A stretch of DNA of 64,000 nt from positions 20,783 through 84,782 of the forward strand of contig DYEF01000023.1 of assembly GCA_020725805.1 (NCBI GenBank), written 5' to 3'. The notes under the pieces were generated by a model, which saw only the letters and a list, made by a program, of their open reading frames with translations, was not told where the DNA came from and searched no databases. Shown here one piece after another: positions 1,459-60,363 of this stretch; the stretch's first letter is position 1, and each line of letters begins with the position of its first letter. The position numbers were made by a program, and so were the translations under genes. The stretch is from Bdellovibrio sp. Lineage in GTDB: Bacteria > Myxococcota > SpSt-1050.

Positions 1459-1506
1459 CTTACCAGTACCCGTCATCCTGATTTTTCAATACAATCAAAT
1501 ATTTTG

Positions 1507-1534
1507 TTGATATTGAGTAAAATGTTTGTATTAT
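1507..1534 (+). promoter_or_regulatory. putative sigma70 promoter for tnaA (TTGATA-16-TATTAT)
   Basis: -35 TTGATA at 1507-1512, a 16 nt spacer, -10 TATTAT at 1529-1534. This lies about 30 nt upstream of the preferred ATG at 1567. Confidence 0.35.
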
Positions 1535-1566
1535 CTCCTCACCTGTATTTTCCAAGGAGTCGTAAA

Positions 1567-19892: not shown

Positions 19893-22295
19893 TTATTCTA
19901 AAACTCCTGCGTATCTCAGCATCCAGTAAGCAATGGAATAGAACATAGGACCACCATATCCCTGAGGGCTTCCGCCCGATACCTTCGAGTAAGGATTTCC
20001 GTTCCACCACATAGTTCGTATTTCATCATACGGAAATACCCTGTCCCACTGTGGCTTCTTGAATCTGTCGATCCCGTTATCCTTTGCATCCTGCCGGTTG
20101 CTGTTGTCGAACAGTACCTTTCTGAGGTCACGCGGAATCTCCCGCATTGTTCTGACTGCATCCTCGACCCTCGCCCCGTCTTCACTGTAGAGTGCGACCA
20201 CGGCTGCCCACATCGGTTGTCTCTCGGGAATCTCCCATTCGTAGAATTTCAGCAGGTTTGCAAGCCATTTCGCCCTTCTCTCGGGATTGTGCTCGTATCT
20301 CAGAAGTGTTGTATATGCCAGCATAGCCAGTTCGTGGTCGGAGTGATTTGCTATAGCGGGATTCGTAACTGTCCAGATCTCATCTGTAAATTCGACGAGT
20401 CTGTCGTACTTATACCTGTTTATCAGCTCCTCATAGGCATTGTAAAATTTGAGCTCTCCAGTAATTCTGTATGCGGAGAGCATAAATCCGAGAATCTGTG
20501 TACCGTTGAGCCAGCCTCCGCCGTGTGCCGATTCCATACAGAGGTCGAGCGGGTATTTCTTGAGACACCTGTCCATTCCGTCAACGGAGACACCAATATA
20601 ATCCGGTTGCCAGTGCCCCCACGTAGTCTTCTGACCGTCCAGATCCAGAAGCTGATAACCGTTTCTCAGAATATAATCAGCAATCCCGCCGAGCCGTTTT
20701 GCAACCTCTTCACGCTCCTTGTCATCCTTCGCACAGTGGTCGTAGTAAAAAGAATATCCGAAGAAATGACCATCTATCTCGTCTGATGATGTATCATCCT
20801 TCCAGTAATACTTCTTCCCGTTGTATTCAACAGGATGCCAGTTCGGACGACTCTTCTTATCCTCATATACAGCCCCCTCGTCTTCCCTTACAAGAGAACG
20901 GGTTACAAATCCGTATCCGAGTCCGGCCTTCTCAAAATCCACGGCCGGTATATCCACTTCCAGAAACATTACCTCGATAGCCTTCCGGGCCTTCTGATAA
21001 TAATATTCGTCCTTCGTAACCGCATAGGCCATACACCATGCTGCTACCTGCATCTGTGTCCAGAGCCCGTCATTGTCGGAATCCCAGACCTTCGGGTCCT
21101 TTATCTCGAACTCATCGCCCGAAGAGAGGTCGGGGGCAACGAAGCCGTCCATACGCCAGAAATATTTATCCTGCAGTTCCTCAAAATATTTGATCTTATC
21201 CGCAAGTTTTGTCTCGACGAGATAAATTCTCGAGATACCGCTTTTTGTGGCAATAAATCTGTTGCCGTTATCGTCCAATGCTACATCATTTACCTTTTCA
21301 TCGAGTATCCATCTTCTCGAGAGATAGTAGTCGACATGACCGTCCTGCTGATTAATAAACGTTGCGCCGATCTCGTGTCCGAGGGCTATCATATTCCCTC
21401 TGCATACTGCGGAGTTCGTCCTGTTCATAGGCAGTCCGTCAGGCTTTGCATAGAATTTTTCGAACTTACCTTCTTTGTAAAGAGTATAGCCGGAGAATGT
21501 TGATATAACCAGAGTCCTGTTGTCATCGCAGAAGGCAAGAGATGAGACCAGATTATCTCCCAGGTCGCCGTTTTCGGAGTTGTAATTCTTCATTGCCATA
21601 CCATCATTTTCATACACACCCTTATCCGTCCCAATGAATATATGCAGCTGATCACTTACAGCGATATTCTTGATTCCTGATACATCCGTAATTTTATAAT
21701 ACTCCGAAAAATTGCTCCCGATCTCATAGACGGAACTATTTGTTGCAAAATAGTAGTGATTATTAACCCCGTATAAAGAAATAACGTCCTCACCCAGAGC
21801 GCTTATATCAATATCTTTTCTTTCTGTTTTATTGAAAAGGACAATACTACCGGCCGTTCTCCCGATCAGAAAATCAGAGTTCTTTACCTTCCCTATATCA
21901 AGAAGTCCGTCAATCAGGGGGACGGCATTCTCAAAAATATCCAGATTCTGATTATATGCAAACAAACCGTTCTTTGTCATAACATAGAGGGTATCCAGAT
22001 ATGCGAATTTCAGGGCATTGACATCCGGCAACTGATCTGTTTTGTAATAGAATTTTACCAACTCCTCGGAAAAAGGCGTATCTTTGACGACAGTCGAATG
22101 CTTCTCGACCTTATAGTAGGCCCGTGGCGGAATATAGCCTGTATCACCTCCGGCATCAGTCTGTACATCAGAACCCGAGACATCGGCAATGTCAGTATAA
22201 ACATCTTCCGCAATTATATCCTTTGAATCAGAAGATTCATCGGAGCAGGAAAAGAGAAGAGCAAATAAAGCAATAAGGATAATATAATTTTTCAT
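19893..22295 (-). CDS. hypothetical lipoprotein (about 800 aa): N-terminal propeller-like repeats, C-terminal unknown domain
   Basis: Start set at MKNYIILIALFALLFSCSD (ATG 22295, AGGAGG RBS) instead of 22343. Lipobox LFSC is present. Confidence 0.6.
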   Translation of the reverse strand: MKNYIILIALFALLFSCSDESSDSKDIIAEDVYTDIADVSGSDVQTDAGGDTGYIPPRAYYKVEKHSTVVKDTPFSEELVKFYYKTDQLPDVNALKFAYLDTLYVMTKNGLFAYNQNLDIFENAVPLIDGLLDIGKVKNSDFLIGRTAGSIVLFNKTERKDIDISALGEDVISLYGVNNHYYFATNSSVYEIGSNFSEYYKITDVSGIKNIAVSDQLHIFIGTDKGVYENDGMAMKNYNSENGDLGDNLVSSLAFCDDNRTLVISTFSGYTLYKEGKFEKFYAKPDGLPMNRTNSAVCRGNMIALGHEIGATFINQQDGHVDYYLSRRWILDEKVNDVALDDNGNRFIATKSGISRIYLVETKLADKIKYFEELQDKYFWRMDGFVAPDLSSGDEFEIKDPKVWDSDNDGLWTQMQVAAWCMAYAVTKDEYYYQKARKAIEVMFLEVDIPAVDFEKAGLGYGFVTRSLVREDEGAVYEDKKSRPNWHPVEYNGKKYYWKDDTSSDEIDGHFFGYSFYYDHCAKDDKEREEVAKRLGGIADYILRNGYQLLDLDGQKTTWGHWQPDYIGVSVDGMDRCLKKYPLDLCMESAHGGGWLNGTQILGFMLSAYRITGELKFYNAYEELINRYKYDRLVEFTDEIWTVTNPAIANHSDHELAMLAYTTLLRYEHNPERRAKWLANLLKFYEWEIPERQPMWAAVVALYSEDGARVEDAVRTMREIPRDLRKVLFDNSNRQDAKDNGIDRFKKPQWDRVFPYDEIRTMWWNGNPYSKVSGGSPQGYGGPMFYSIAYWMLRYAGVLE

Positions 22296-22637
22296 AACCT
22301 GTATCCTCCTGTGCAAAAAAGTATATATCAGATAAAGTGGCAATTCAATACAGAAAATAAATCTTTAAGCATCTGTGTCCGACCTCTTTTTATAGTGAGT
22401 TATGAACAAGATTTAACAAAAGTCTAACCGGCACCGGACTGATAACTCCTGCTACGCCCGAAATTCTATGCACTCAAGAAGTAAATCCGGAATTAAAACC
22501 ATTCACACACATTTTGCAAAAGCTATAAATATCTTAAACCAGCATTAAAAGTAATCAAAATGCAGTTATATAAAACGCCCCGGAAATAAATATGGATACT
22601 CTTTATAGCAAACCTGAGGCAAGATTAGCCGCGAGTT

Positions 22638-23375
22638 TTATTCTTTATCGGTCTGGTCTGGCTTCTTTCCGGCAGATAGACCGCCACCGCCGATTGCCAG
22701 TCTGATAAAAACCCCCCTGATATCCGCAGATGGTCCGTTGGTGATCTCCTGTTCATTATACACCCAGCTGCCTCCCTTATAGAGCGGAAGGATAAAACCA
22801 CCTCTTAATCCTATCAGAAGTCCGCCGGTGCCTTCACCGTCCCTGCCAAGCGGCAAAAGAAAATCTGCACCCAGTGAGAAGGATGTAATAAAACCACCGT
22901 TTGAGAGTTCTATTCCCCTCTTTGGATTTTTAAGGGCTTCATTGAAATCATAACTTGCTTTTTCCGAGATCGAGACATTAATTCCGGCTCCTCCTATACC
23001 GAGCATCGGATAGAGAATCAGTCCGCCTCTTCTGAACAGAATATACCCTACGTCAAAGAGTCCGTACCCGCCTGAGACAGAGACTTTATACAAATTGGTC
23101 GATTTACTCTCTGTATTCAGCCCGTGACCTTCCCCGCCGAGAATGAAACTCCCCATTATCCCGTGTCCTCCTCCGCCAAAGGAATACTGACTTTCAGAAA
23201 ATTCGGGCAGATCATTTGAACCGAGTGTTTTATTCAATCCCGAAAGATTAATATTCTGCCAGCCTGCCATAAAATAGCCCATTCCACCTCCCTCTCTGCT
23301 ATCCTTCTCCCCGGCATTCAGTATCGAAGAAGCAAAAAGTAAGAACAAAGAAATCAAAACAACTTTTCTGAGCAT
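22638..23375 (-). CDS. hypothetical secreted Gly-rich protein (possible small OM beta-barrel)
   Basis: Start set at MLRKVVLISLFLLFASSILNA (ATG 23375, GGAGG RBS). Gly-rich segments such as GGGGHGIMGSFILGGEGHGL. Confidence 0.55.
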   Translation of the reverse strand: MLRKVVLISLFLLFASSILNAGEKDSREGGGMGYFMAGWQNINLSGLNKTLGSNDLPEFSESQYSFGGGGHGIMGSFILGGEGHGLNTESKSTNLYKVSVSGGYGLFDVGYILFRRGGLILYPMLGIGGAGINVSISEKASYDFNEALKNPKRGIELSNGGFITSFSLGADFLLPLGRDGEGTGGLLIGLRGGFILPLYKGGSWVYNEQEITNGPSADIRGVFIRLAIGGGGLSAGKKPDQTDKE

Positions 23376-23783
23376 AAAAAACCTCCCTGATTTGGCGGAT
23401 AATAAATATTTTTTCGAACCGGTTGTCAATACAATTATGTTTATTGCAATATATATCTATTCATTGCCTCGTCACAAATACCCCAAAGCTTAATATATCA
23501 GACAAGAAAATTCTCTCACTGAATCTCGTTAAGAGCGGAATAGTCCATTCACTCTGGTTTTTAGTCCTGTTTTCTAAACATATTTATAACTAGTTGCATT
23601 TATAATTCTTTTCAATGTGCATTTTTATTCTTTGATTACAGAGCCGGTATTGAAATTATGATAGTCAACTCCATTTTCATAATGCCGATATCAGATCAGA
23701 AAACCCGTATGGTGAATGGACGAAATTCAGGACAATATTCAACAAGGCCTCTTTGGTAAAAATATAAAAAGTTGGAACCCGCT

Positions 23784-24143
23784 CTATCTGATGTATTTTT
23801 CGGGCTCTTTATCAAAATGAGGTTTGCAGCCCTCGCAGCAGAAATAATAGTATTTCCCTTTATACTCGGAGTAAGTGGTATCTTTTGTTATTTTAAATTT
23901 TTCCTTTGTCACAGGGCAAACAGCCTCTGTACTTTCTGCCTGCTTCTTGTTGAATCCAATAGATGGTTCTTCCGATTTTTTCTTCTCTTCCTGTTTTGTG
24001 AGCTGATGATGTTTTTCCGATTTCTTCTCGCTTTTTACTGCAGTATTATTTTGATGTTCTGATTCTTTACAATCATCAGCAAATAGTATGGCAGAGAATC
24101 CAAAAAGAAAAAACATCAAAGAAAAAGCAAATAAATTTCTCAT
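23784..24143 (-). CDS. secreted YHS-domain-like metal-binding protein
   Basis: Signal peptide; C-terminal CPVTKEKF...YYYFCCEGCKPHF matches the YHS/TRASH-type signature. GGAGG RBS. The gene is AT-rich relative to its flanks. Confidence 0.55.
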   Translation of the reverse strand: MRNLFAFSLMFFLFGFSAILFADDCKESEHQNNTAVKSEKKSEKHHQLTKQEEKKKSEEPSIGFNKKQAESTEAVCPVTKEKFKITKDTTYSEYKGKYYYFCCEGCKPHFDKEPEKYIR

Positions 24144-24188
24144 AAATACCTCCGGATGTTATTATGATGACAATCTATTACATTGGAT

Positions 24189-25061
24189 TCATCTTCTCAT
24201 CTCTAAAATACCTATTTTATATACATTATTTACTCCCGTAAAGGAAATCTTAATGTCATTGATTTTGAAACCCGAACCACATAAGATGCTGCTCCAGTCA
24301 GAAAGGGCGATATACTTCTCTCCAAGTCCCAGTCTGCTTGATTTTAAAATACTCACATATTCATCATAGTAAAAGTTGTTTAGAATCTGTTCTCTATGTC
24401 TGGTGTCAGTCATAGATCTTACTGTGTCGAAGACATCTTTATATAGAAGGGTTGCCGAGATATTTCTGAGTCTTGCATCTCTTATCATTTCAAGATTATG
24501 GTCAACCTCAATAATTATAAACAGCTTTGGGTTGAGATGATATATTTTACTAATTATTTTTAATTTATCACGCATTCTTAAATGATGAAGAGAAAGAGAT
24601 GACAAAACGATATCTGGTCTTTCCGGTAATGTTTTGACATCTAATTTACTTAGATTTGCTTTAATCGGGGTTACACCGCAATAGCTAAAACGAGAAAGAT
24701 TTATTTTAAGTTGTTTCAGGGCTGTATCTGAATAATCTATCCCGGTGATTTTAAGAGTGATATCCGGTTGTTTATGAATATTTTCAAGTACTCTTTTCCA
24801 CATAAGTCCTTCACCAATTCCAAGGTCAAGTATATTTAATCTGTGATGCTGGTTGATCAGTGTATTAATTTTTTGATAGACGAAGTAATGAGTCTCTTTA
24901 AGAATCACGGAATTGGCAAAGAGGAGATAGGCATTTCTTGTCCGGGGATTTATATATTTTTGTCTTAAATTAAACTCTTTTTTTCCCAATATTCTCTGAT
25001 AGACGCGGTCTATGTCTTCCTTAGAAAGTATGGACAGGCATTCTGTAAAATTATATCTCAT
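24189..25061 (-). CDS. class I SAM-dependent methyltransferase (YrrT-like position in a methionine-to-cysteine operon)
   Basis: SAM motif I ILDLGIGEG. Its start overlaps the upstream lyase stop by 11 nt. About 34 percent GC. Confidence 0.7.
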   Translation of the reverse strand: MRYNFTECLSILSKEDIDRVYQRILGKKEFNLRQKYINPRTRNAYLLFANSVILKETHYFVYQKINTLINQHHRLNILDLGIGEGLMWKRVLENIHKQPDITLKITGIDYSDTALKQLKINLSRFSYCGVTPIKANLSKLDVKTLPERPDIVLSSLSLHHLRMRDKLKIISKIYHLNPKLFIIIEVDHNLEMIRDARLRNISATLLYKDVFDTVRSMTDTRHREQILNNFYYDEYVSILKSSRLGLGEKYIALSDWSSILCGSGFKINDIKISFTGVNNVYKIGILEMRR

Positions 25062-26208
25062 AGTTTAATCTGTTCCTCATAGATAGGCTGATTGCCTTTG
25101 ATAAATCATCGATTATATCTTCGGCATTTTCAATACCAGTTGATAGTCTCAAAAGATTGTCCGTTATTCCCCTTTTTTCTCTTTCTTCATAGGATAGAGA
25201 TGCGTGAGTCATTTTAGATGGTATACAAATTAGTGATTCGATACCTCCTAGACTCTCTGCATTTTTTATAATTTTGAGTGATTTCAGAAACATCTCTGTT
25301 TGAGCATAGTCGTTGCCAAACTCAAAACTAATCATTCCGCAAAAACCTGCCATCTGCCTCTTGTAGATTTCGTCGTTTTCTATGTCAGGAAAGTAAACTT
25401 TCTTTATGAACCTGTTGTTTTTTAAATAATTGTACACTTTTCTAGCATTTTCGAAGTGTCTCTCCATTCTGATAGAAAGCGTTTTTATTCCTCTGAGTGT
25501 AAGGAAACAGTCAAAAGGAGAGGGGATAGCTCCTGCGGCGTTCTGATAAAACTTGATTCTTTGATATATGTCTTCATTATTAGTTATTACTGCACCTCCT
25601 ACAACATCACTGTGACCATTGAGATATTTTGTACTGCTATGAACGACTATATCGGCACCGTGGTTTAATGGCCTCTGAAAATATGGGGTTGCAAAAGTGT
25701 TATCAACCACAAGAATAGTGTTACTTCTTTTTATAGAAGCTATATCATTGATGCTGTATAATTTTAGCAGAGGGTTAGATGGTGTCTCTATCCATATTAT
25801 CTTTGTCCTTTCATTTAAAAGATCTTTTATTTCATAAGGGTCATTAGAAAACACATAGTTTGTTGTTATACCGTATTGTCGCAGTATCTTTTCAAATATT
25901 CTGTAGGTACCTCCATAAATATCCGATGAGGAAATAATCTCGTCTCCCGTTTTCAGGATACTAAGAACAGCCATAGTTGCGGCACATCCGGAGGAGAAGG
26001 CAAGAGCGAAATTGCCATCTTCAAGAGATGCCAGGACCTCCTCAAGTGTCCTCCTCGTTGGATTCTGTGTCCTTGAATATTCAAAACCTTTATGCCTTCC
26101 CGGAATCTCCTGATAAAATGTAGTAGAAAGATGGACAGGCGGTATTATTGCACCAGTTGAAAGGTCAGGCTCCTGCGAAATATGAATTGATCTTGTTTCA
26201 AATTTCAT
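25051..26208 (-). CDS. cystathionine gamma-lyase/gamma-synthase family PLP enzyme (MccB/MetC-like)
   Basis: PLP lysine motif HSSTKYLNGHSDVVGG; N-terminus MKFETRSIHISQE typical of the CGS/CGL family; AAGGAG RBS. Its start overlaps the upstream CBS-like stop. Confidence 0.85.
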   Translation of the reverse strand: MKFETRSIHISQEPDLSTGAIIPPVHLSTTFYQEIPGRHKGFEYSRTQNPTRRTLEEVLASLEDGNFALAFSSGCAATMAVLSILKTGDEIISSSDIYGGTYRIFEKILRQYGITTNYVFSNDPYEIKDLLNERTKIIWIETPSNPLLKLYSINDIASIKRSNTILVVDNTFATPYFQRPLNHGADIVVHSSTKYLNGHSDVVGGAVITNNEDIYQRIKFYQNAAGAIPSPFDCFLTLRGIKTLSIRMERHFENARKVYNYLKNNRFIKKVYFPDIENDEIYKRQMAGFCGMISFEFGNDYAQTEMFLKSLKIIKNAESLGGIESLICIPSKMTHASLSYEEREKRGITDNLLRLSTGIENAEDIIDDLSKAISLSMRNRLNYEI

Positions 26209-27559
26209 TTTTTATGCTCCTTCTGAGTAAAAAATTAATCAGATCAGATTTTGTAATGATATTGGAAGGTATTCCGTTCTTAAGAATAATGACGGCATTA
26301 GAGGATTTTGACAATACATTTCTGATGTCGTCGATCGAGGCAGATTCATCAAAGAGAGGTAGTGGAGGCCCCATAACTTCACTGACTCTGGCAATAGAGA
26401 CAATATTTTTGTTTTTGAAAGAGTGTAGTAACCCCTCTTCTGTCAGATTCCCGATGATTTTCTTTTTTTCTGTTACGGGTAGTTGAGAGATACCGTATTT
26501 ATTCATTAGATTAATGGCATCGGTGATATTCTGTTCTGCTTCAACTGTTATTAGGTTTGGACCAATCATATTTAGTTCGTTTAATATAGAGGCCGCATTG
26601 ATTGGTTCTCTGCTGGTTAAAAATCCATTTTCTGTCATCCATTCATCGGAATAGAACCTGGATATATAGTTCCTTCCGGTGTCAGGTAGAATAACAACGA
26701 TATTTTCCTCTTTGTTTTCCCTTTTAACGTATTTAAGAGCCGCGGCAAGGGCTGTGCCGGAAGAACCTCCTGCCAGTATTCCCTCCTCTTTTGCAAGCCT
26801 TCTCGCGGTTATAAATGATTCTTCGTCAGTGACTCTGATAAATTCGTTTATTATCTGTGCATTTAGTGTAGTTGGCACAAAATCCTCTCCTATTCCCTCG
26901 ACCTTATATGATTTTGGGTTATCTCCAGAGAGGACAGAGCCGGATGGGTCAGCAGCAATAATGTAGAGATGAGGTATTTTCTCTTTGAGATATAAGCCTG
27001 TCCCAGAAATTGTCCCACCGGTTCCAATGCCGGCGACAAAGACATCAATTTTCCCCTCCATATCGGAATATATTTCCCTGCCGGTCGTTTTGTAATGGGC
27101 GTTTGGGTTGTCAAGGTTTTTAAATTGTGAAGGGCGAAAGGAATGTGGAATATTATTCGCAAGCCTGTCGGCGTAGTTATTATAATTGTCCGGTGAATCC
27201 GGTGATTCGTTTGGTACAACAACGACTTCTGCTCCATACGCCCTGAGAATGTTTATTTTTTCTGTGCTCATCTTTTCGGGGACGATAAATATACATCTGT
27301 AACCCTTTATTGCACATACAAGTGCAAGACCAATTCCTGTATTTCCGGCGGTTGCTTCAATAATTGTGCTTTTGGGTTGCAGGATCCCTTTTCTTTCAGC
27401 TGACTCTAACATTTCGAGAGCGATTCTGTCTTTTACACTTCCGCCCGGATTGAACATCTCACACTTAACGAATATTCGGGATTTTATCCCGGCTGAGATC
27501 TTCTTTAGCTCTATTAAGGGGGTATTACCAATTGATTCAAGAATAGATTTATAAACCAC
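26198..27559 (-). CDS. cystathionine beta-synthase-like protein: cysteine-synthase fold plus C-terminal tandem CBS domains (MccA-like)
   Basis: GTG start with AAGGAG RBS. N-terminus MVYKSILESIGNTPLIELKKI, PLP lysine in SVKDR, ATAGNTGIGLA, and a C-terminal 130 aa with two CBS-domain-like repeats. Confidence 0.85.
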   Translation of the reverse strand: MVYKSILESIGNTPLIELKKISAGIKSRIFVKCEMFNPGGSVKDRIALEMLESAERKGILQPKSTIIEATAGNTGIGLALVCAIKGYRCIFIVPEKMSTEKINILRAYGAEVVVVPNESPDSPDNYNNYADRLANNIPHSFRPSQFKNLDNPNAHYKTTGREIYSDMEGKIDVFVAGIGTGGTISGTGLYLKEKIPHLYIIAADPSGSVLSGDNPKSYKVEGIGEDFVPTTLNAQIINEFIRVTDEESFITARRLAKEEGILAGGSSGTALAAALKYVKRENKEENIVVILPDTGRNYISRFYSDEWMTENGFLTSREPINAASILNELNMIGPNLITVEAEQNITDAINLMNKYGISQLPVTEKKKIIGNLTEEGLLHSFKNKNIVSIARVSEVMGPPLPLFDESASIDDIRNVLSKSSNAVIILKNGIPSNIITKSDLINFLLRRSIKNEI

Positions 27560-27654
27560 AGTCTCTATCTCCTTGAGAAAAAATTACAAATTAGCACCCA
27601 CTCCAAACATAAATTACATATCATTTCTCTTCGCAGGTATTAATAATCTAAACA

Positions 27655-28584
27655 TTATTCGATACCATCCATCAGCGCCGTCGAGAGATATCTTTCACCG
27701 GTGTCGGGAAGGAGAACAACGATTACCTTACCTTCGGATTCCTTTCTCTGTGCAACCTGAAGTGCGGCCCACATAGCGGCCCCCGAAGAGATTCCCGCCA
27801 TTATCCCTTCCTTTCTGGCTATCTCCCGTGCTGTATTGATTGCATCTTCATTGGTGACCTGAATTATCTCGTCGATTATTCCCTTATTCAAGACCTCCGG
27901 AACAAATCCCGCCCCAATTCCCTGTATTTTGTGCGGACCGGGCTTCCCGCCCGAAAGGACCGGAGAGGCGGCCGGCTCCACGGCAACCGAATAAATCTGT
28001 TTCCGTCTCTTTATTGCCTCTGATACACCCGTAATTGTCCCGCCTGTACCGACACCACCCACGAAAATATCAATTTTCCCCTCTGTATCATTCCAGATTT
28101 CCAAAGCTGTGGTCTTACGGTGAACTTCAGGATTGGAAGGATTTTTGAACTGCTGCAGCATAAAACCACCGGGTGTACTTCTGAGAATCTCTTCGGCCTT
28201 TCTGACCGCCCCGCTCATACCTTCGGGTCCCGGAGTAAGCAGAATCTCTGCCCCGAGAAGTCTTAAGAGCTTTCTTCTCTCGACGCTCATTGTCTCGGGC
28301 ATTGTAAGTATGAGTCTGTACCCTTTTGCAGCGGAGACGAAGGCAAGGGCAATCCCGGTATTTCCGCTCGTAGGTTCAATAAGTGTTGTGAATCCGGGCT
28401 TAATCAGTCCCTTCTCCTCTGCGTCCTCAATCATTGCAAGACCTATCCTGTCCTTAACACTGTGGGCAGGATTGAAGGACTCGATTTTGGCAAACAGGGA
28501 GACATTAAGACCTTCTGTGAGCCTGTTAATTTTCACAAGCGGCGTATTTCCGACTGTTTCGACGATACTGTTATAAACTTTCAT
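27655..28584 (-). CDS. cysK: cysteine synthase A (O-acetylserine sulfhydrylase)
   Basis: [40 protein letters not shown], and GTGGTITG near residue 180. GC is typical of the host, unlike the downstream island. Confidence 0.9.
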
Positions 28585-28600
28585 ATATCCTCCTTTTGTT

Positions 28601-29032
28601 TCAAATATAAAACATCGGTGTCATAGGTGATATTGAATTTTCAAACCTCGTATAAAGTGTTTCGAAGTCTGTTTTCGCAAGTAACTGTTCATACTCACTT
28701 ACCAGTTCAGAGGCAATCTTTTTTGAAAAATTCTGAAAGAGGTTATCAGGGTTTTTCTCCTGCCTGAACGTTTTACGGGCTGTAGCATTAATAATATCCC
28801 TGACGGTTATCTCTCTCATAGCCTTTGCCAAAATATAACCACCCTTAAATCCCCTTATGGATTTTAATATACCGGATCTCTGCAGGTCGGAGAGAATTAC
28901 CGATAAATATTTTGCAGGGATACCGGTTGCATCATATATTTGACCGGACGTTACCGACCCGCCTGATCTGGTCGAATAACGAATATAGATTATTATGCTG
29001 ATTGCATATTCCGCTTTCTTACTTAAAACCAT
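28601..29032 (-). CDS. Rrf2-family transcriptional regulator (CymR/IscR-like)
   Basis: Start set at [16 protein letters not shown] (ATG 29032, TGGAGG RBS), which matches the canonical Rrf2 N-terminus. The track's 29143 start would read through the repeats. HTH region [28 protein letters not shown]. Confidence 0.8.
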
Positions 29033-29100
29033 ATCGCCTCCAAAATACTCTACCAATATAATCATATTAGTAGAGTTTGTCAAGAAAAATTTCTCCATTT

Positions 29101-29152
29101 CTGTTTCTACCTGGCACCGAAAAATCCTGTTTCTACCTGGCACCGAAAAATC
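29101..29152. repeat. two perfect tandem copies of a 26 bp direct repeat ctgtttctacctggcaccgaaaaatc; a third partial copy (tacctggcaccg) lies at 29194-29205
   Basis: Read directly: 29101-29126 is identical to 29127-29152. They sit 70-120 nt upstream of the Rrf2 regulator start, in the divergent region shared with the flhA-like gene. Confidence 0.85.
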
Positions 29153-29345
29153 GATGACCCAAATAAAACCAATAAAAACAGTTAGTTACAAACATACCTG
29201 GCACCGGTTCGGATTCAGTTCGGATTGCAATGATACTGAATTTATTGTTCACTGAACTTATTATTCAACAATATACATAATACCTAAAATTGGCACACAA
29301 CTTGAGGCAATAAAACAAAATCTCGTATTATTAAGGAGGTTTACT

Positions 29346-31361
29346 ATGAGATTCAGAATCGGTCCGGATGTAACGTTTATCTCACTTTTTATCCTTCTGC
29401 TGATTTGCATAATCATCCCGATGCCGGGGTGGCTTCTGGATTTCTTCATATCAATGAACATCTGTGCGACCATACTGATTCTGGTGATTTCTCTGAATAT
29501 CTCTTCGGCAGTCGAACTTCCGTCATTCCCTTCTATCCTCCTTGTCACGACACTCTTCAGACTCTCTCTAAATGTTGCATCCACACGCGCAATTCTCACC
29601 ACAGGTGAAGCCGGAAGGGTAATCGCTGCCTTTGGAAACTTTGTCATAGCAGGGAATTACTTTGCAGGGGCAGTCGTTTTTCTCATAATTACCATTATTC
29701 AGCTCATTGTTGTTACCAAAGGTGCCGAAAGAGTTGCCGAGGTATCGGCCCGGTTTACTCTCGATGCTATGCCGGGCAAACAGATGTCAATCGACGCCGA
29801 ACTGAGATCCGGACACATCACACAGGAGGAAGCGATCAGACGAAGGACAAACCTCTCCATAGAATCCCAGTTCTTCGGTTCAATGGACGGTGCGATGAAA
29901 TTCGTCAAGGGAGATGCTATTGCCGGAATTCTTATATCACTGATCAATGTTGCCGGAGGGATACTTACCGGAACAGTAATGAAAAATCTGAGCGTTGCAG
30001 ATGCGGTATCAAAATATACGATACTCAGTATAGGAGACGGTCTTGTATCGCAGATTCCTTCTCTTGTCATCTCAGTCTCCGCCGGAATAATCATTACCAG
30101 AATCTCCACCATAAAGAAGGCCGGACTCGGCAAAGAGATATTCATCAATCTTACACGCAAACCGCTGATGATTCTTATTGCATCTGTCATCGCCGTGCTT
30201 TTCTCTCTCCTTCCGCATATCCCGTTTCTCCCCTTCTTTTTGATCGGAGCCTCTCTGGCAGTTGCATACAGAAGACTCAACTCGGCATCACCCGACGAAA
30301 AGGCAAATCAGGAACCTGAGAATACCAGAAAAGCACAGGAAAGAGGAAATCCGGTTCCTGAGAATAACGAGACAAACAGCCTCTTTGCAGAACCGGTAAC
30401 ACTTGTAGTCTCAGAGGGTTTATGCTCCGACAGTTCTATCGGCTCCCCCGATTTCATCATCAGGAATATTCTTGCATCGGTCAGAAAGAGATTTCTTGAA
30501 AGACTCGGCTACAGAATGCCCGGAGTCCGTGTCGTAATTTCAGATTCATCAGAACCATCTTTCTCTCTTAACATTTACGGTACAGAGGTTGCAAACCTCA
30601 CATTCAGAAAAGATGCCGTATATACTATCCGGAAGAGATATTCAAAGGACGCAATAGCCGAGCTCGCAAGCGGGGAATATGTAAAGTATTACACAGAAGG
30701 CGATGGTCAGGGCAGCACAGAGAATCCGGGTCTTGCTCAGGTAATGCAGGAGATACTCTATTCGTACATTCTGAAAAATATCAGGGAGCTTTTCGGTATT
30801 CAGGAGACCTCCGAAATAATCGAAGAGTTCTCACAGAGATATCCGGCGCTGATAAGGGAGACGATTCCCAGGGCAGCAGGCATCAACACACTCTCGGAGA
30901 TACTGAAAAATCTCCTGTCAGAGGGAGTGTCAATCAAAAACATGAAAAACATCCTCGAGACCATTGAAAGATATGCCCCCTTCGAAAAGAATCCGATTCT
31001 CCTGACAGAATTCGTAAGGGTCTCGCTTGCCAGACAGATATGTCAGAATCTCTCCGCCGGTCAGCGGCTTCCGGTCTATGTCCTGTCTCAGGAAATCAAC
31101 AGGCTCATTCTGGATTCCATATCAGATATCGGCGGAGAACACGTACTCTCGATCAGTCCCGAAAACGCCCGCAGAATAATAGAGGCCGTGAAAAACACAA
31201 GGGAGAATTCAGAGGGACATCTGGTCATAATGACTGATTTCGAAGTACGGAGATTCGTAAGAAAGCTCATCGAGTACGAGATGCCCTTTGTTTCGGTTAT
31301 CTCATTTAAGGAGGTATCCTGTAATGTCAGAATCGAACCGGCCGGGGTTATAGGTCTTTGA
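29346..31361 (+). CDS. flhA: FHIPEP-family type III export gate protein (FlhA/SctV homologue)
   Basis: AGGAGG RBS. Near-continuous match to the FlhA N-terminal membrane domain: FRLSLNVASTRAILTTGEAG, VVTKGAERVAEVSARFTLDAMPGKQMSIDAELRSG, FFGSMDGAMKFVKGDAIAGILI, GDGLVSQIPSLVISVSAGIIITR. Length 671 aa. Confidence 0.8.
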   Translation: MRFRIGPDVTFISLFILLLICIIIPMPGWLLDFFISMNICATILILVISLNISSAVELPSFPSILLVTTLFRLSLNVASTRAILTTGEAGRVIAAFGNFVIAGNYFAGAVVFLIITIIQLIVVTKGAERVAEVSARFTLDAMPGKQMSIDAELRSGHITQEEAIRRRTNLSIESQFFGSMDGAMKFVKGDAIAGILISLINVAGGILTGTVMKNLSVADAVSKYTILSIGDGLVSQIPSLVISVSAGIIITRISTIKKAGLGKEIFINLTRKPLMILIASVIAVLFSLLPHIPFLPFFLIGASLAVAYRRLNSASPDEKANQEPENTRKAQERGNPVPENNETNSLFAEPVTLVVSEGLCSDSSIGSPDFIIRNILASVRKRFLERLGYRMPGVRVVISDSSEPSFSLNIYGTEVANLTFRKDAVYTIRKRYSKDAIAELASGEYVKYYTEGDGQGSTENPGLAQVMQEILYSYILKNIRELFGIQETSEIIEEFSQRYPALIRETIPRAAGINTLSEILKNLLSEGVSIKNMKNILETIERYAPFEKNPILLTEFVRVSLARQICQNLSAGQRLPVYVLSQEINRLILDSISDIGGEHVLSISPENARRIIEAVKNTRENSEGHLVIMTDFEVRRFVRKLIEYEMPFVSVISFKEVSCNVRIEPAGVIGL

Positions 31362-31437
31362 AACAGCGGCTAAACTTTTGCTTTACTTTGTCTGCCAAAA
31401 AATGTAAATGGCTTATTACCTGTCTACGGAGGAACAT

Positions 31438-32754
31438 ATGGTAGAACGTTATGACGTCAGGGAAGTAAGTTCGCTGTTTACAGAGACGGCAAGATTCAAC
31501 GAGTTTCTCGAGATTGAATTACTGGTATGCGAGGCATACGAACGTTCGGGGAAAATACCTTCCGGAACGACACTAAAGTTAAGGGAACTCATCGGCAGAC
31601 TGACCGATGAGGATGTAAAGAAGATAAACGAGATAGAAAAGACAACAAAACACGATATCATCGCATTTTTAACACTCATTGAACAGAAGGCGGGCGACCT
31701 CTCCAGATATATACACCTCGGGCTTACGAGCTATGACGTAGTGGATACGGCACTCTCCTCTCTTATGGTAAAGGCGCTCGGGATAATAATATCGGATCTC
31801 AGGAAACTGGCAGACGTTCTGATGCAAAAGGCGGATGAGTTTAAGTATACACCGATGATCGGACGGTCTCACGGGATACACGCCGAACCTATTACCTTCG
31901 GACATAAACTGATAAACTTCTACGATGAAACCATGCGCAATCTTGCCAGACTCGAAAGGGCCAGAGAAAACATTGCTGTAGGTAAAATATCCGGGGCAGT
32001 TGGAATCTACGGCAACGTCGACCCTGATGTGGAGAACTATGTGCTGAACAAACTAAACCTCAGACCTCTCTTTGCAACGACGCAGGTAATTCCGAGGGAT
32101 ATACACGCAGAGCTAATCCTGAGCCTTGCAATTAATGCTGCCTCGCTGGAGAAGTTTGCAACGGAGATAAGGCATCTTCAGAGGACGGAGCTCAGGGAAG
32201 TATTTGAATTCTTTACCAAAGGGCAGAAAGGCTCCTCCGCCATGCCGCACAAAAAGAATCCGATACTTTCGGAAAACGTCTGCGGCCTTGCACGAATTAT
32301 AAAATCATACACAGTTGCCGCTCTGGAAAATATCCCGCTCTGGCACGAAAGGGATATATCGCACTCGTCTGTCGAGAGGATTATGCTCTCGGATGTCTTT
32401 ACTCTCTCATCTTTTACCATACGAAGGACGACCCAGATATTCGAAAAGATGATAGTACTCCCCGAAAATATGCAAAAGAATCTCGACATTACAAAAGGCC
32501 TCTATTTCTCAGAATCACTCCTCCTAAAGATTGTCGAAAAAGGATATCTGAGACAAAAGGCCTATGAACTCGTTCAGAAACTGGCATTACATGCCTTCGA
32601 AAATGACCTCGACTTCAAATCCGTTGTAAAGGAGAGCGATGAGATAAAAGCCATTCTGTCCGAAAAGGAAATAGAGTCTGTCTTCAATTTTGACCATCAC
32701 TTCAGAAACATAAACTTCATTTTCGAAAGTGTAAAAAATAAATACAGGACCTGA
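31438..32754 (+). CDS. purB: adenylosuccinate lyase
   Basis: Start set at MVERYDV (ATG 31438, GGAGG RBS). Fumarate-lyase signature GSSAMPHKKNP; GRSHGIHAEPITFG. Confidence 0.85.
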   Translation: MVERYDVREVSSLFTETARFNEFLEIELLVCEAYERSGKIPSGTTLKLRELIGRLTDEDVKKINEIEKTTKHDIIAFLTLIEQKAGDLSRYIHLGLTSYDVVDTALSSLMVKALGIIISDLRKLADVLMQKADEFKYTPMIGRSHGIHAEPITFGHKLINFYDETMRNLARLERARENIAVGKISGAVGIYGNVDPDVENYVLNKLNLRPLFATTQVIPRDIHAELILSLAINAASLEKFATEIRHLQRTELREVFEFFTKGQKGSSAMPHKKNPILSENVCGLARIIKSYTVAALENIPLWHERDISHSSVERIMLSDVFTLSSFTIRRTTQIFEKMIVLPENMQKNLDITKGLYFSESLLLKIVEKGYLRQKAYELVQKLALHAFENDLDFKSVVKESDEIKAILSEKEIESVFNFDHHFRNINFIFESVKNKYRT

Positions 32755-33246
32755 TTTTTTGCCTTTACATAAAAATTGTATACAAAAGGAATCTGTGCTC
32801 CGGGATATTCCCCCTTACAATGCTTATCAGTACCGGAAGCAGAGTCAGGCGATAAAATTCTAAACCGGTTTATCAGGCAGTCAGGTGCCGGTTACAAACC
32901 GGGTGAAGAGTATCTGCCTTAAAGAGTATCCGGCAGCCTCTATTGCCTTGATTTCACGCCGTTTTTTGCAATATCCGGAAGAGAGGTGCCGGGCAGAATT
33001 TGCCGGATTTACCCGGAAGATATCCGTTTGTAAATGACTAGATTTCCGGTCTGTTTTCTGTTGCCATTAATTTTATTTAATGTTAGTCATTTCGGGTTAC
33101 AGGGTATGGGTTGGTAAGATTATGACACATCTGGCGAAAAGAGTTAGACGTTATATGGTCTTCATAGTCTTATCCGTCATTATCGCATCCTGCGGGATAA
33201 AGGCTCCGCCCAAACCCTCTGGTCAGGCACTTGCGGAGGTCATTAT

Positions 33247-34128
33247 ATGTTCAAAGGCTCGATAGTTGCTATTGTTACCCCGTTCAGAAACGGCAGAATT
33301 GACAAGACAGCCTTAAAGGAACTTGTCAAATGGCATATACGGCATAAAACGGATGCTATTGTGGTAAACGGAACTACCGGTGAAACCCCTACCCTTTCCC
33401 GGGAGGAGCAGAAGGAGAATATTTATACCGTACTCGAGGCCACCGATTCGAGAATTCCGGTCATTGCAGGTATCGGTTCGAACAGTACCGAACATACTAT
33501 CGACAACGCAAAGACGGCTATATCCTGCGGCGTCGACGGTCTGCTCGTTGTAACACCCTACTACAACAAACCCACACAGGAAGGAATGTACCAGCATTTC
33601 AGAAAGATATCCGAACTCTCGCCTGTCCCGATAATCCTCTACAACGTACCGGGCAGAACGGGAGTCTCACTGAAGACTGAGACAGTAATGAGGCTTGCCC
33701 TTCTCAAAAATATCGTCGGGATAAAAGAGGCGGGCGGTGACTTCAAAATGGTTATGGAACTTGCATCGAATCTTAAGAATTTCGATATACTCTGCGGAGA
33801 CGATGCCCTCAATCTGCCTATGGCATCGGTAGGTTCAAACGGGGCAATAAGTGTAACCGCAAATGTCGTACCGAATCTTATGTCGAGGATGTACAAACTC
33901 ATAGAAAAAGGAGATTTCAGAGAGGCAAAGAAGATTCATCTCGGGCTGAGGCACCTGAATTCGGTTCTCTTCATCGAGTCAAATCCGATTCCGGTCAAGG
34001 CTGTTTTATCGCTTATGAAGAAGATAAAAAACGAACTAAGACTTCCGCTCACTCCAATATCTGCGGAAAACATGAAGAAGATAAAGGCTGTCATCGACAG
34101 ATACTACCCCGAAATCTATAAATTATAA
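33247..34128 (+). CDS. dapA: 4-hydroxy-tetrahydrodipicolinate synthase
   Basis: MFKGSIVAIVTPF, GTTGE, active-site lysine region NIVGIKEAGG. Confidence 0.9.
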   Translation: MFKGSIVAIVTPFRNGRIDKTALKELVKWHIRHKTDAIVVNGTTGETPTLSREEQKENIYTVLEATDSRIPVIAGIGSNSTEHTIDNAKTAISCGVDGLLVVTPYYNKPTQEGMYQHFRKISELSPVPIILYNVPGRTGVSLKTETVMRLALLKNIVGIKEAGGDFKMVMELASNLKNFDILCGDDALNLPMASVGSNGAISVTANVVPNLMSRMYKLIEKGDFREAKKIHLGLRHLNSVLFIESNPIPVKAVLSLMKKIKNELRLPLTPISAENMKKIKAVIDRYYPEIYKL

Positions 34129-34143
34129 CTAAAGGAGCGTATT

Positions 34144-34953
34144 ATGATAAAAATCGTCGTAATCGGTGCAATGGGAAGAATGGGAAGACTTATTATTCAG
34201 ACAATTACAGAAGACCCTGACACAGAACTCTGCGGTGCGGTAGAGGTCTTCGGGCACAAGGATATCGGAAAGGATATCGGGAATCTCTGCGGTCTTGGTA
34301 CCCTCGGAATGCCCCTCTCCGATGACCTCGAGAAGGTAATTACCGGGTCTGACTGCATCATCGACTTCTCCACACCAAAATCTACTCTCGAAAACCTGCC
34401 GGTTGCGGCAGAAAACGGCACCCCGGTAGTAATAGGCACGACCGGACTGACGGGCCGCAAAGAGATGAAACAGATAAGGCTCTACAGCAAGAAAATTCCT
34501 GTCCTCTTCTCTCCCAATATGAGTATCGGTATGAATATACTTTTTAAGGTCGTCAGGGATGTTGCAAAATTTACAAAGGGCAGATTTGACATCGACATCC
34601 TCGATATTCACCACCGCACAAAGAAGGACGTCCCGAGCGGCACTGCCCTGAAACTTGCAGAGAACGTAGCTGTTGCAAGAGGACTCGATGCAAAGAAGAA
34701 TATTCACTTTATGAGACACGAAACCAACTTTACAAGAGACCCGAACGAGATAAAGATAATGGCCTCCAGAATCGGAGACATTGTAGGGGAGCATACTGTC
34801 TTCTTTGGCGGGAAAGGCGAGAGTATCGAGATAACACACAGGGCATCGAACAGACAGAACTTTGCCGAGGGCGCTATTCTGGCAGCAAAATGGCTTGTCA
34901 ACCAGAAGAAGGGCCTTTACAGCATGTCAGACGTTCTGGGACTGAATGATTGA
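34144..34953 (+). CDS. dapB: 4-hydroxy-tetrahydrodipicolinate reductase
   Basis: MIKIVVIGAMGRMGR NAD(P)-binding N-terminus, and the conserved EITHRASNRQNFAEGAILAAKW C-terminal block. Confidence 0.9.
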   Translation: MIKIVVIGAMGRMGRLIIQTITEDPDTELCGAVEVFGHKDIGKDIGNLCGLGTLGMPLSDDLEKVITGSDCIIDFSTPKSTLENLPVAAENGTPVVIGTTGLTGRKEMKQIRLYSKKIPVLFSPNMSIGMNILFKVVRDVAKFTKGRFDIDILDIHHRTKKDVPSGTALKLAENVAVARGLDAKKNIHFMRHETNFTRDPNEIKIMASRIGDIVGEHTVFFGGKGESIEITHRASNRQNFAEGAILAAKWLVNQKKGLYSMSDVLGLND

Positions 34954-35804
34954 CTGAGCAAAGAACATTTCTTCCGCTTGTAATAATAACCGGTATCGTC
35001 TCTATTTCATTCGCCGGGCCTGTTACGAGTATGGTAGCAATGCCCGCCGTTGCAATTGCGCTCTTCAGACTCTCTATATCCTTTATAATCCTTCTCCCCT
35101 TCTTTATCAGAGAAATTACGAATAGTCAGTTTCCGGAGATAAAACTGATAAAACTCTCACTATTGGCCTCCGTATTTCTGGCACTACATTTTATATTCTG
35201 GATCAGTTCGCTAAAATACACAAGTGTTACGAGTTCGGTCGTGCTCGTAACGACCAACCCCCTCTTTGTCGGAATCCTTTCTGCCCTTTTATTAAGGGAA
35301 AGACCCGGGAAAAAACTGATAATAGCCATTTCAATAGTTCTTCTCGGAGGTATAATCATATCGTCGGGTGAAGAGATCGACAGCATTAAAATAAAAGGAA
35401 ATCTGCTCGCACTGGCAGGTGCCGTAATGGCCTCACTTTATATAATAACAACAAGGAAAGCGAGGCAGAACTACTCACTCGTTACATATACCACAGTGCT
35501 CTATCTCTTTACCTCGGGCATACTTCTCATAGCAGCACTGATATCGGATACGAAACTCTTTTACTACCCTGCAAAGAACTACCTGCTCATATTATTTCTC
35601 GCGATAGTCCCGCAGCTTCTGGGGCACAACTCCTTTAACTGGGCGCTAAAATATCTCTCCCCTACAGTCGTAGCAATTCTGATACTTTTCGAACCTATAG
35701 GCGCAACAATAATATCCCATTTTATCTTCGGATATATCCCGTCTACGGGAGAAATAATAGGTTCAGCACTGATTCTGACAGGAATACTCGTATCACTAAT
35801 TTAA
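34950..35804 (+). CDS. EamA/DMT-family transporter (10 TM)
   Basis: Two EamA-like halves of hydrophobic helices. Overlaps the dapB stop by 4 nt. Confidence 0.75.
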   Translation: MTEQRTFLPLVIITGIVSISFAGPVTSMVAMPAVAIALFRLSISFIILLPFFIREITNSQFPEIKLIKLSLLASVFLALHFIFWISSLKYTSVTSSVVLVTTNPLFVGILSALLLRERPGKKLIIAISIVLLGGIIISSGEEIDSIKIKGNLLALAGAVMASLYIITTRKARQNYSLVTYTTVLYLFTSGILLIAALISDTKLFYYPAKNYLLILFLAIVPQLLGHNSFNWALKYLSPTVVAILILFEPIGATIISHFIFGYIPSTGEIIGSALILTGILVSLI

Positions 35805-36003
35805 TCTGAAAAACTATTACCAGTCAGGAAAGATATGGCTAAAGGCCGGTACTAAAGGCCGGTGCCAGATACCTTTTTAATCCATTGAAACGATTGAAAA
35901 ACATCTGCTCCCGGTATTTTGTCCAAACATTGAACACAGATGCATAACCGGTCGGAATCCGGCGAATCATTAATAGTTTTTGCGATATTAGTTTAAAATA
36001 AAA

Positions 36004-36027
36004 AAGGCGAGGAATTTTCCTCGCCTT
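36004..36027 (-). terminator. rho-independent terminator for the Cys-rich lipoprotein gene
   Basis: On the minus strand a perfect 8 bp stem GGCGAGGA/TCCTCGCC with a 5 nt loop is followed by a U-run. It is placed 24 nt after the stop of the gene ending at 36051. Confidence 0.6.
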
Positions 36028-36050
36028 ATGTCGGAATTTAGATTCCGTTA

Positions 36051-56815: not shown

Positions 56816-56817
56816 TT

Positions 56818-57336: not shown

Positions 57337-57348
57337 GGAGGGATTACT

Positions 57349-60168: not shown

Positions 60169-60285
60169 CTGTAATCCTCCGTCTTTTGGGTAATAAAATA
60201 TCATTCTTTTACCTGCAAGACAAGCCCGAACTTATTGGAATACAGAAGAATAAGCTCGTAAAAAGATTTATTCAGTTATAAAGAT

Positions 60286-60363
<78 letters not shown>

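Follow-up and report, generated by a model that had tools for sequence, protein, structure and literature searches.

A predicted methionine-to-cysteine salvage module with a GRAS-fold methyltransferase beside the rrf2-cysK pair of a Myxococcota-like bacterium

Directly downstream of cysK in a contig assigned to Bdellovibrio sp. (lineage Myxococcota, SpSt-1050; assembly GCA_020725805.1, contig DYEF01000023.1) lie four AT-rich genes on one strand, which encode a cystathionine beta-synthase (CBS), an enzyme of the cystathionine gamma-lyase (CGL) type, a methyltransferase and a small, putatively secreted YHS protein. The stretch analysed, here called the window, covers positions 20,783 to 84,782 of that contig (64,000 nucleotides [nt]), and all coordinates below are window positions unless another locus is named. 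The locus raises two questions: what would such a module do beside a gene of cysteine synthesis, and how did it come to stand there? On balance, we lean towards a methionine-to-cysteine salvage module under CymR-like/CysK control, which came to the 3' end of cysK from a lower-GC relative by relocation or acquisition. To our knowledge, methionine-to-cysteine operons with a "sacrificial" methyltransferase have been described from a few Firmicutes only, and the role of that methyltransferase was never settled.

The enzyme genes and the GRAS-fold methyltransferase

The first gene of the module (26198-27559, minus strand) encodes a CBS of 453 amino acids (aa) with a GTG start and a pyridoxal phosphate (PLP) core, followed by a Bateman module of two CBS domains (PF00291 at residues 7-293, then two PF00571 stretches). 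The protein passes the TIGR01137 equivalog cut-off (525.4 bits versus 510.25), and its best solved relatives, M. tuberculosis Rv1077 (362 bits) and human CBS (339 bits), align with it over the full length, including the Bateman module. In family terms it is a canonical Bateman-domain cystathionine beta-synthase, predicted to make cystathionine from serine and homocysteine; O-acetylserine or cysteine may also serve as co-substrate. The second gene (25051-26208, minus strand) encodes a 385-aa PLP enzyme of the Cys_Met_Meta_PP family (PF01053, 461 bits over residues 4-373), whose best solved relatives are the cystathionine gamma-lyases 7ba4 and 2nmp. It passes the equivalog cut-off of no NCBIfam model; PRK07811 (446 bits versus 513) and the MccB-type PRK07671 (436 versus 594) score highest. 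The enzyme clearly belongs to the family, and gamma-lyase specificity is predicted for it.

The third gene (24189-25061, minus strand) encodes a 290-aa S-adenosylmethionine (SAM)-dependent methyltransferase with a GRAS fold. PF03514 (GRAS) scores 49.2 bits against a gathering cut-off of 27, and PF13649, PF13847 and PF08241 are also above their cut-offs. An AlphaFold (AF2) model built from a 40-sequence alignment reached a predicted local distance difference test score (pLDDT) of 95.4; an earlier model from three sequences (pLDDT 62) was discarded. The 12 best fold matches in the PDB are all plant GRAS domains (SCL3, RGA, SHR, SCR and SCL7), with template modelling (TM) scores of 0.62-0.77 (0.71-0.77 for 11 of the 12), and ordinary methyltransferases come next at about 0.5. 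When the PDB was searched with a profile of the family, plant GRAS proteins were found at E 4e-34, and 34 of the 40 relatives have a GRAS match of their own.

The glycine-rich SAM-binding motif I, ILDLGIGEG, is invariant in the methyltransferase family, as are an acidic residue after strand 2 and an SLSLHH motif. In our alignments plant GRAS proteins lack the glycine motif, whereas the window protein retains DLGIGEG. Its SLSLHHL aligns with SALSIHHLE of CysG and BelI, in which the histidines are part of a His-His-Asp calcium site for carboxylate O-methylation. We conclude that the protein is a class I SAM-dependent methyltransferase of the GRAS family, with catalysis predicted from sequence and model. 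The best NCBIfam match is an unrelated hypothetical-protein model (36 bits versus a cut-off of 243).

The family is small. A word-seeded search of 5.8e9 proteins returned three matches, and an exhaustive profile search of 1.84e9 returned four representatives at E<1e-30, the remoter matches being bacterial GRAS-like proteins. Zhang, Iyer and Aravind are said to have proposed in 2012, in a paper to which PMC4279901 refers, that such bacterial proteins are small-molecule methylases.

Both junctions between the three enzyme genes are 11-nt overlaps. At 26198-26208, AAT GAA ATT TGA of the CBS gene is read over ATG AAA TTT GA of the CGL gene, and at 25051-25061, TAT GAG ATA TAA of the CGL gene is read over ATG AGA TAT AA of the methyltransferase gene. 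A Shine-Dalgarno-like sequence lies within the upstream gene at each overlap.

A first-pass annotation of this DNA, made from its letters alone, had reported these start-stop overlaps, and base-by-base inspection verified both. It had also described the products as a CBS-like enzyme, a CGL-family enzyme and a SAM-dependent methyltransferase sharing the gene logic of the Bacillus yrrT-mtnN-mccA-mccB operon. The family assignments hold, but the CBS is of the canonical Bateman type (Rv1077, human CBS) and not of the MccA type. Likewise, the methyltransferase is predicted to be SAM-dependent, but its domain, fold and profile matches lead to the GRAS family and lend no support to a relationship with YrrT. 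The shared logic extends to a CBS-CGL pair with a SAM methyltransferase but not to mtnN, which has no counterpart here.

We compared the window with loci on other contigs, 36 of which were fetched (designated by L-numbers). The order CBS-CGL-methyltransferase was found in every contig that encodes a member of the methyltransferase family (L001/L002, L003, L004/L005, L007-L009, L010 and the divergent L011), and five of the six lineages have 11-nt overlaps at both junctions (L001 being counted on the assumption of an internal start). That the linkage never varies and is translationally coupled is our chief reason to think that the methyltransferase acts together with the two PLP enzymes. The C-terminal -YEI of CBS and CGL was considered as a possible CysK-docking tail and dropped: it is a by-product of the overlap with M-(K/R)-(F/Y) starts, and it is absent where the genes do not overlap (CGL of L004, CBS of L010).

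The flanks of the module differ by lineage, giving at least six contexts. Flagellar motor genes and tyrS flank it in L004 and phosphoribosyltransferase genes in L001, while in L007 (2743-8836 of that locus) and L010 (2639-8703) the genes directly upstream encode CusCBA-like RND efflux proteins, the periplasmic adaptor having an HMBD metal-binding domain. The CBS proteins of the module contigs are the nearest relatives of the window CBS (59-72% identity); the next plateau, at 53-57%, extends across many phyla. Among 185,579 species-representative genomes, the methyltransferase profile had no match, the CBS-clade profile matched two unrelated loci only, and the module was not found. Neither the window CBS nor the window methyltransferase had an exact match on any recorded contig.

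The fourth gene (23784-24143, minus strand) encodes the YHS/TRASH-type protein (119 aa; PF04945, E 4.9e-11), which is laid out as a signal-peptide-like hydrophobic N-terminus, a charged Lys/Glu-rich linker and a four-Cys C-terminal domain. The gene lies 3' of the module in the window, L001, L003 and L010 (four of the six lineages) and is absent from L004 and L007. Across the four loci that have it, the C-terminal 45 aa, including the four cysteines, are nearly invariant. In L010 the YHS gene is followed by genes for a DUF4395 protein and another Rrf2 protein, and then by norB, hemerythrin and NifU genes.

These assignments suggest the following route. The GRAS-type methyltransferase would use SAM and yield S-adenosylhomocysteine (SAH), which housekeeping enzymes encoded elsewhere would convert to homocysteine. 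CBS would join homocysteine and serine to cystathionine, a step for which the family assignment was tested, and the CGL-type enzyme, if its specificity is as predicted, would split cystathionine into cysteine, 2-oxobutyrate and ammonia. Translation of the three enzyme genes would be coupled through the 11-nt overlaps, with the YHS protein accompanying them.

The Rrf2 regulator, cysK and their promoter

Upstream of the module stand cysK (27655-28584, minus strand), which encodes O-acetylserine sulfhydrylase A (TIGR01139, 468 bits versus a cut-off of 351), and a CymR-like rrf2 gene (28601-29032, minus strand; PF02082). The open reading frame (ORF) of the latter extends to 29143. Its most likely start is M38, at 29032, because the family models begin there and a TTGACA-17-TATATT promoter fits that position. 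From this start Rrf2 has 143 aa, ends in SPMTPMFYI and contains no cysteine, and therefore holds no iron-sulfur cluster. The CymR model NF047409 spans positions 1-139 of 139 on it with 49.6 bits, against an equivalog cut-off of 195 that is not reached, and similarity to solved CymR structures is limited to the helix-turn-helix (HTH) region. Only six homologues were found in the protein collection; all have 143 aa, all end in SPMTPMFYI and all come from Myxococcota or "Deltaproteobacteria" metagenome-assembled genomes (MAGs) or from metagenomes, two of them bearing the names of such MAGs. The Rrf2 encoded next to the module in L010 was rejected as an orthologue (33% identity over the HTH region only).

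In S. aureus, CymR ends in the decapeptide EDLDGYMFYI; its last five residues enter CysK's active site, and binding to CysK has a dissociation constant (KD) of 25 nM (bioRxiv 10.1101/2024.09.19.614015). The last four residues, MFYI, are identical between the window Rrf2 (...PMFYI) and S. aureus CymR (...YMFYI). The window CysK contains EPTSGNT and QQF motifs, which appear to hold the residues equivalent to the S. aureus peptide contacts. We infer that Rrf2 works as a CymR-like repressor, although its sequence does not make it a CymR equivalog, and predict that it docks into CysK.

The first-pass annotation had suggested control of the CymR/CysK kind, and the cysteine-free Rrf2, the end-to-end model alignment and the MFYI tail support this; the score of 49.6 bits against 195 does not allow the regulator to be called CymR itself. 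The annotation had also placed both cysK and the regulator among genes of host composition. This is true of cysK but not of rrf2, whose GC content at third codon positions (GC3) is 0.38 (z -3.0, calculated as described below). A second cysK paralogue lies at 47185-48081 (plus strand; TIGR01139, 384 bits versus 351) and is followed by a gene for an MBL-fold hydrolase (48087-49073, plus strand).

The promoter of rrf2 (29055-29083, minus strand) is of the sigma-70 type, with 11/12 matches in TTGACA-17-TATATT. Its -10 box is overlapped by a candidate operator, the dyad CTAC-N16-GTAG (29050-29073), which spans that box. The window, L031 and L035 have a block TTGACA-N4-CTAC-N16-GTAGAG in common at their rrf2 promoters. 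The exact dyad occurs once in the 64 kilobases (kb), versus 0.30 occurrences expected. In the 36 fetched loci it occurs nine times: at six rrf2 promoters (L031-L036), in L003 and L010 directly upstream of the point where CBS starts, and within a gene in L018, where we take it as a chance copy. Judged by this shared element, the free-standing module and the autoregulated rrf2 gene appear to have one operator in common.

In L001, L003, L007 and L010 a conserved TTGACA-17-(-10) promoter lies in front of CBS, along with a short leader that ends in GAGGTAGAG ahead of the ATG. In the window, the 95-nt spacer between cysK and CBS (27560-27654, minus strand) retains about 15 nt of leader next to the ribosome-binding site, AAGGAGATAGAGACT, then GTG. 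No promoter-like and no terminator-like site was found in this spacer, and no remnant of the module's usual promoter was found elsewhere in the window. Rfam gave no riboswitch or T-box match, either at gathering thresholds or at E<=1. The first-pass annotation had proposed looking for a CymR-type box at 27560-27654, and no Bacillus CymR box lies there; nor has the consensus TAAWNCN2ANTWNAN3ATMGGAATTW any match with three or fewer mismatches in the 64 kb.

The window module thereby looks like one that has lost its own promoter and operator and is now a 3' extension of rrf2-cysK. Since its promoter is missing, it probably rides on the rrf2-cysK transcript, and the rrf2 promoter probably drives the whole string of rrf2, cysK, CBS, CGL, methyltransferase and YHS genes. 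In the control that we propose, the module would be read from the rrf2 promoter, 95 nt behind the rrf2-cysK pair, and the MFYI tail of Rrf2 would dock into the CysK active site. By analogy with Firmicutes, the Rrf2-CysK complex would occupy CTAC-N16-GTAG when cysteine is plentiful and dissociate as O-acetylserine accumulates.

The spacer between rrf2 and the divergent FHIPEP gene contains a perfect 26-nt tandem duplication (29101-29152), each copy with GGTGCCAG, and a third copy of GGTGCCAG at 29198. Three copies of the same sequence lie in the corresponding spacer of L035 (4311-4402 of that locus), and L010 has one copy upstream of its CBS gene. Their spacing does not match that of sigma-54 sites.

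Composition, synteny and origin of the module

The segment from 23450 to 27650 has a GC content of 36.8%, against 44.9% for the remainder, and is the minimum among all 4.2-kb segments of the stretch. The first-pass annotation had described a low-GC island of 33-36% between flanks of 47-50%. The contrast exists, but these figures overstate it: the 500-nt windows within the segment range from 32% to 45%, and the mean of the 64 kb is 44.4%. The flanks are also partly AT-rich (38-42% GC at 21500-22750, and 36-39% at 28500-29500, where rrf2 lies). At the distal edge of the segment is an AT-rich non-coding stretch (23430-23783), and no terminator-like hairpin was found after the YHS gene.

The deviation is clear in codon choice. 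The four module genes have GC3 values of 0.34, 0.31, 0.33 and 0.38, compared with 0.50 +/- 0.047 for the 39 other ORFs. When the amino-acid sequence of each gene was kept, codons were drawn from the host table and GC3 was compared, the four genes had z-scores of -4.3, -7.1, -6.9 and -5.1. The profile is thus not uniform after amino-acid correction; a uniform one would, according to the first-pass annotation, have refuted its view of the island. Low-GC codon tables fit the module genes better than the host table, which is the best fit for 37 of the 43 ORFs (the exceptions outside the module being only rrf2 and the gene at 58525-60204), and low GC3 persists along the entire CBS gene. The gene at 58525-60204 (minus strand) belongs to the RDD family and is a second strong compositional outlier (GC3 0.364, z -7.5 versus the host table). 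It abuts tRNA-Pro(GGG) (60286-60362, minus strand); like the module, it may be foreign or relocated, here at a tRNA site.

On the other side of the module's 5' end, the gene order of the window (27655-38375) comprises a 776-aa gene, dapB, dapA, purB, the FHIPEP gene and divergent rrf2-cysK. The same block is syntenic in contigs of two related species, L031-33 (GCA_049969675.1, GCA_964543015.1) and L035-36 (in L035 only to purB). At the protein level CysK is 85-86% identical to that of the window, DapB 83%, PurB 77-80% and Rrf2 57-58%. Because this block is kept in the relatives, the rrf2-cysK pair is native to the host. DNA homology to the relatives runs to window position 27656, in the cysK stop codon, and stops exactly there, and the 262 base pairs (bp) that follow cysK in L031 contain no CBS start. 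All five relative contigs (L031-L033 and L035-L036, from five assemblies of two species) end 39-262 bp past the cysK stop, so they cannot show an empty site. This common contig break after cysK suggests a repeated or strain-variable region at the point where the window carries the module.

Among the CBS matches, none of those in the module-linked clade belonged to the two MAG assemblies of the nearest relative, which may be incomplete. The nearest CBS matches from NCBI were only the window's own and P0006, which traces to other assemblies. A dapB at least 90% identical to that of the window was found in a "Deltaproteobacteria bacterium" MAG; contigs with such a dapB begin just upstream of dapA, and none reaches the module. 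A metagenome scan with a lineage-specific 816-aa neighbour yielded 15 loci (36-83% identity), none with any other window gene.

The relatives are more AT-rich than the window, with GC3 values of 0.26-0.42 versus 0.50-0.56 for the same genes. In L004 and L010, from genomes of about 34% GC, module composition equals that of the flanks, and the composition of the window module fits low-GC members of what is possibly the same lineage. The module-bearing contigs probably do belong to that lineage, because the Rrf2 family is so narrow; L010 and L036 come from the same sample. Since the dyad is exact at the module in L003 and L010, the module was probably already in the regulon within the lineage and not newly captured. 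It was probably moved or acquired from within this uncultured Myxococcota-like lineage, from a member with lower GC, and not from a remote phylum. Horizontal acquisition, as the first-pass annotation would have it, is plausible but unproven: the homology break at the cysK stop and the aberrant composition speak for it, but mobility signatures were not found and native rrf2 is AT-rich too.

Alternative readings and known systems

Several points weigh against salvage by a relocated or acquired module. In regulation, Rrf2 lies far below the CymR cut-off and there is no Bacillus-type CymR box; co-transcription of the module with cysK is itself a prediction; and the dyad, whose operator role is read from sequence, has one mismatch in L007 and two in L001. 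One-mismatch variants of the dyad are not enriched in the window, and no further members of the regulon can be named. In metabolism, the CGL-type enzyme may instead be a gamma-synthase, a beta-lyase or a desulfhydrase, and no SAH-to-homocysteine enzyme and no metK were found within the 64-kb window. In origin, the region 23300-29400 and its borders showed no integrase gene, no tRNA and no direct repeats on the flanks. Native rrf2 is the most AT-rich gene of its block in all three genomes examined, so a native gene can look deviant. Finally, the module of L007 has a GC3 of 0.33-0.36 versus 0.44-0.51 in its flanks, though its Cus context is common to L010; part of the low GC may thus be intrinsic to these genes.

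The three points on origin, together with the common dyad, which suggests long regulon membership, are what one would expect if the module were native and vertically inherited here, without transfer, its low GC being intrinsic through weak expression or selected codon choice. We hold this to be unlikely, if well short of far-fetched. Shared gene order with two related species ends precisely at the cysK stop codon, with no CBS start in the 262 bp of L031; the relative's two MAG assemblies contributed no member of the module-linked CBS clade to the matches; and the module stands in at least six different contexts. The promoter that it carries elsewhere is missing in the window, and its z-scores of -5 to -7 lie beyond the -3.0 of rrf2.

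The main role could also lie in sulfide or thiol chemistry tied to metal stress, not in cysteine supply. CBS and CGL enzymes are known to produce H2S; the two would here make it from cysteine and homocysteine, the methyltransferase would act on sulfide, a thiol or a metalloid, and the YHS protein, in the periplasm, would handle a thiophilic metal. We give this little credence. The putatively metal-binding YHS (TRASH-type) protein, with its almost invariant four-Cys domain, accompanies the module in four of the six lineages, but it is absent from L004 and L007; CusCBA-like efflux genes with an HMBD domain adjoin the module in L007 and L010, but the window, L001 and L004 have no Cus genes. When the methyltransferase profile was compared with the PDB, no similarity to known thiol or arsenite methyltransferases was seen beyond the common fold. 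CymR-like/CysK control and the linkage to cysK indicate cysteine supply.

It is very improbable that the GRAS-type protein is no enzyme and, in the manner of plant GRAS proteins, regulates CBS or CGL as a binding or scaffold subunit: non-catalytic plant GRAS domains are its closest solved structures and a stoichiometric partner would fit its strict translational coupling to CGL, but DLGIGEG, the acidic residue after strand 2 and SLSLHH (common to the active CysG and BelI) are invariant, whereas plant GRAS proteins have lost the glycine motif.

We therefore return to methionine-to-cysteine salvage as the preferred reading. One extension of it, that the methyl acceptor is the module's own product (2-oxobutyrate from the gamma-lyase, or sulfide, or a thiol), is a long shot. 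The hints amount to the invariant coupling and the SLSLHH motif common to the metal-dependent carboxylate methyltransferases CysG and BelI. If it were true, each turn of the pathway would supply its own acceptor, and the conversion of methionine to cysteine would be stoichiometrically self-contained. This would explain the constant 11-nt overlap of the methyltransferase gene with the lyase gene, and a bacterial GRAS protein would for the first time have a biochemical function assigned to it.

Whatever the acceptor, a non-orthologous GRAS-fold methyltransferase is locked to CBS-CGL in every contig of the family, so the coupling itself looks selected, and the module offers a compact system for finding the methyl acceptor. 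For bacterial GRAS proteins, from which a major family of plant regulators presumably descends, the locus provides a first clear and testable metabolic context. The MFYI-tailed Rrf2 beside cysK suggests that CymR-style control through CysK docking occurs outside Firmicutes.

The wider neighbourhood is rich in sulfur-handling genes, as seen from the region 54588-58542 (plus strand), which encodes a multihaem cytochrome c, a cytochrome b561 and two YeeE/YedE-type sulfur-transport proteins, one of them rhodanese-fused. A gene at 38721-41378 (plus strand) encodes 885 aa, of which the C-terminal half passes a tyrosine phenol-lyase model (836 bits) and about 430 aa form an unexplained N-terminal extension; a separate tryptophanase-family gene lies at 1504-2931 (plus strand). 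The FHIPEP protein (29346-31361, plus strand) scores 641 bits with the SctV model and 572 bits with FlhA, below both cut-offs. Its gene stands alone, with no other secretion or flagellar genes nearby, and is kept beside purB in the relatives. The window also contains a 1932-aa ORF (10746-16544, minus strand).

Among known systems, the Bacillus yrrT-mtnN-mccA-mccB operon converts methionine to cysteine and is repressed by CymR with CysK, while the Clostridium ubiG-mccB-mccA operon makes the same conversion under the control of T-box and S-box riboswitches and antisense RNA (PMC2566862). The window module resembles the B. subtilis operon (yrrT-mtnN-mccA-mccB-yrhC) in combining a putative SAM methyltransferase with a beta-synthase and a gamma-lyase, and in its predicted Rrf2/CysK control. 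It differs in that it has no SAH nucleosidase gene, its CBS is of the Bateman type and not a CysK-like MccA, its methyltransferase belongs to the GRAS family, a YHS gene is added and the Bacillus CymR box is missing. In addition, the regulator and cysK lie in the same gene string as the module, and the host is Myxococcota-like and not a Firmicute. With C. acetobutylicum ubiG-mccB-mccA the module shares a methyltransferase in one operon with gamma-lyase and beta-synthase, but gene order and methyltransferase family differ, and no Rfam match was found at E<=1.

Compared with the canonical reverse transsulfuration pair (Rv1077, human CBS/CGL), the window CBS aligns over its full length and the closest lyases are gamma-lyases, but the CBS has no haem domain, and the genes share 11-nt overlaps and come with a methyltransferase of their own. 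The Firmicute CymR-CysK system is matched in an Rrf2 protein without iron-sulfur ligands, in the MFYI tail and in the adjacent cysK; outside the tail, in contrast, identity is low, the candidate operator is different and the family is tiny (six sequences). The methyltransferase resembles the GRAS family (plant SCL3, DELLA/RGA, SHR and SCR, and bacterial GRAS-like proteins) in full-length fold and profile match, and departs from it in keeping the SAM glycine motif and in forming a small, divergent subfamily always tied to CBS-CGL; in the literature searched, no paper was found that ties bacterial GRAS proteins to cystathionine enzymes. Operons of methyltransferase, CBS and CGL genes, and control by CymR with CysK, are thus already known. 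What the window adds is a GRAS-fold methyltransferase as the coupled partner, a canonical Bateman-type CBS in such an operon, an attached YHS protein, and a CymR-like regulator with an MFYI tail outside Firmicutes.

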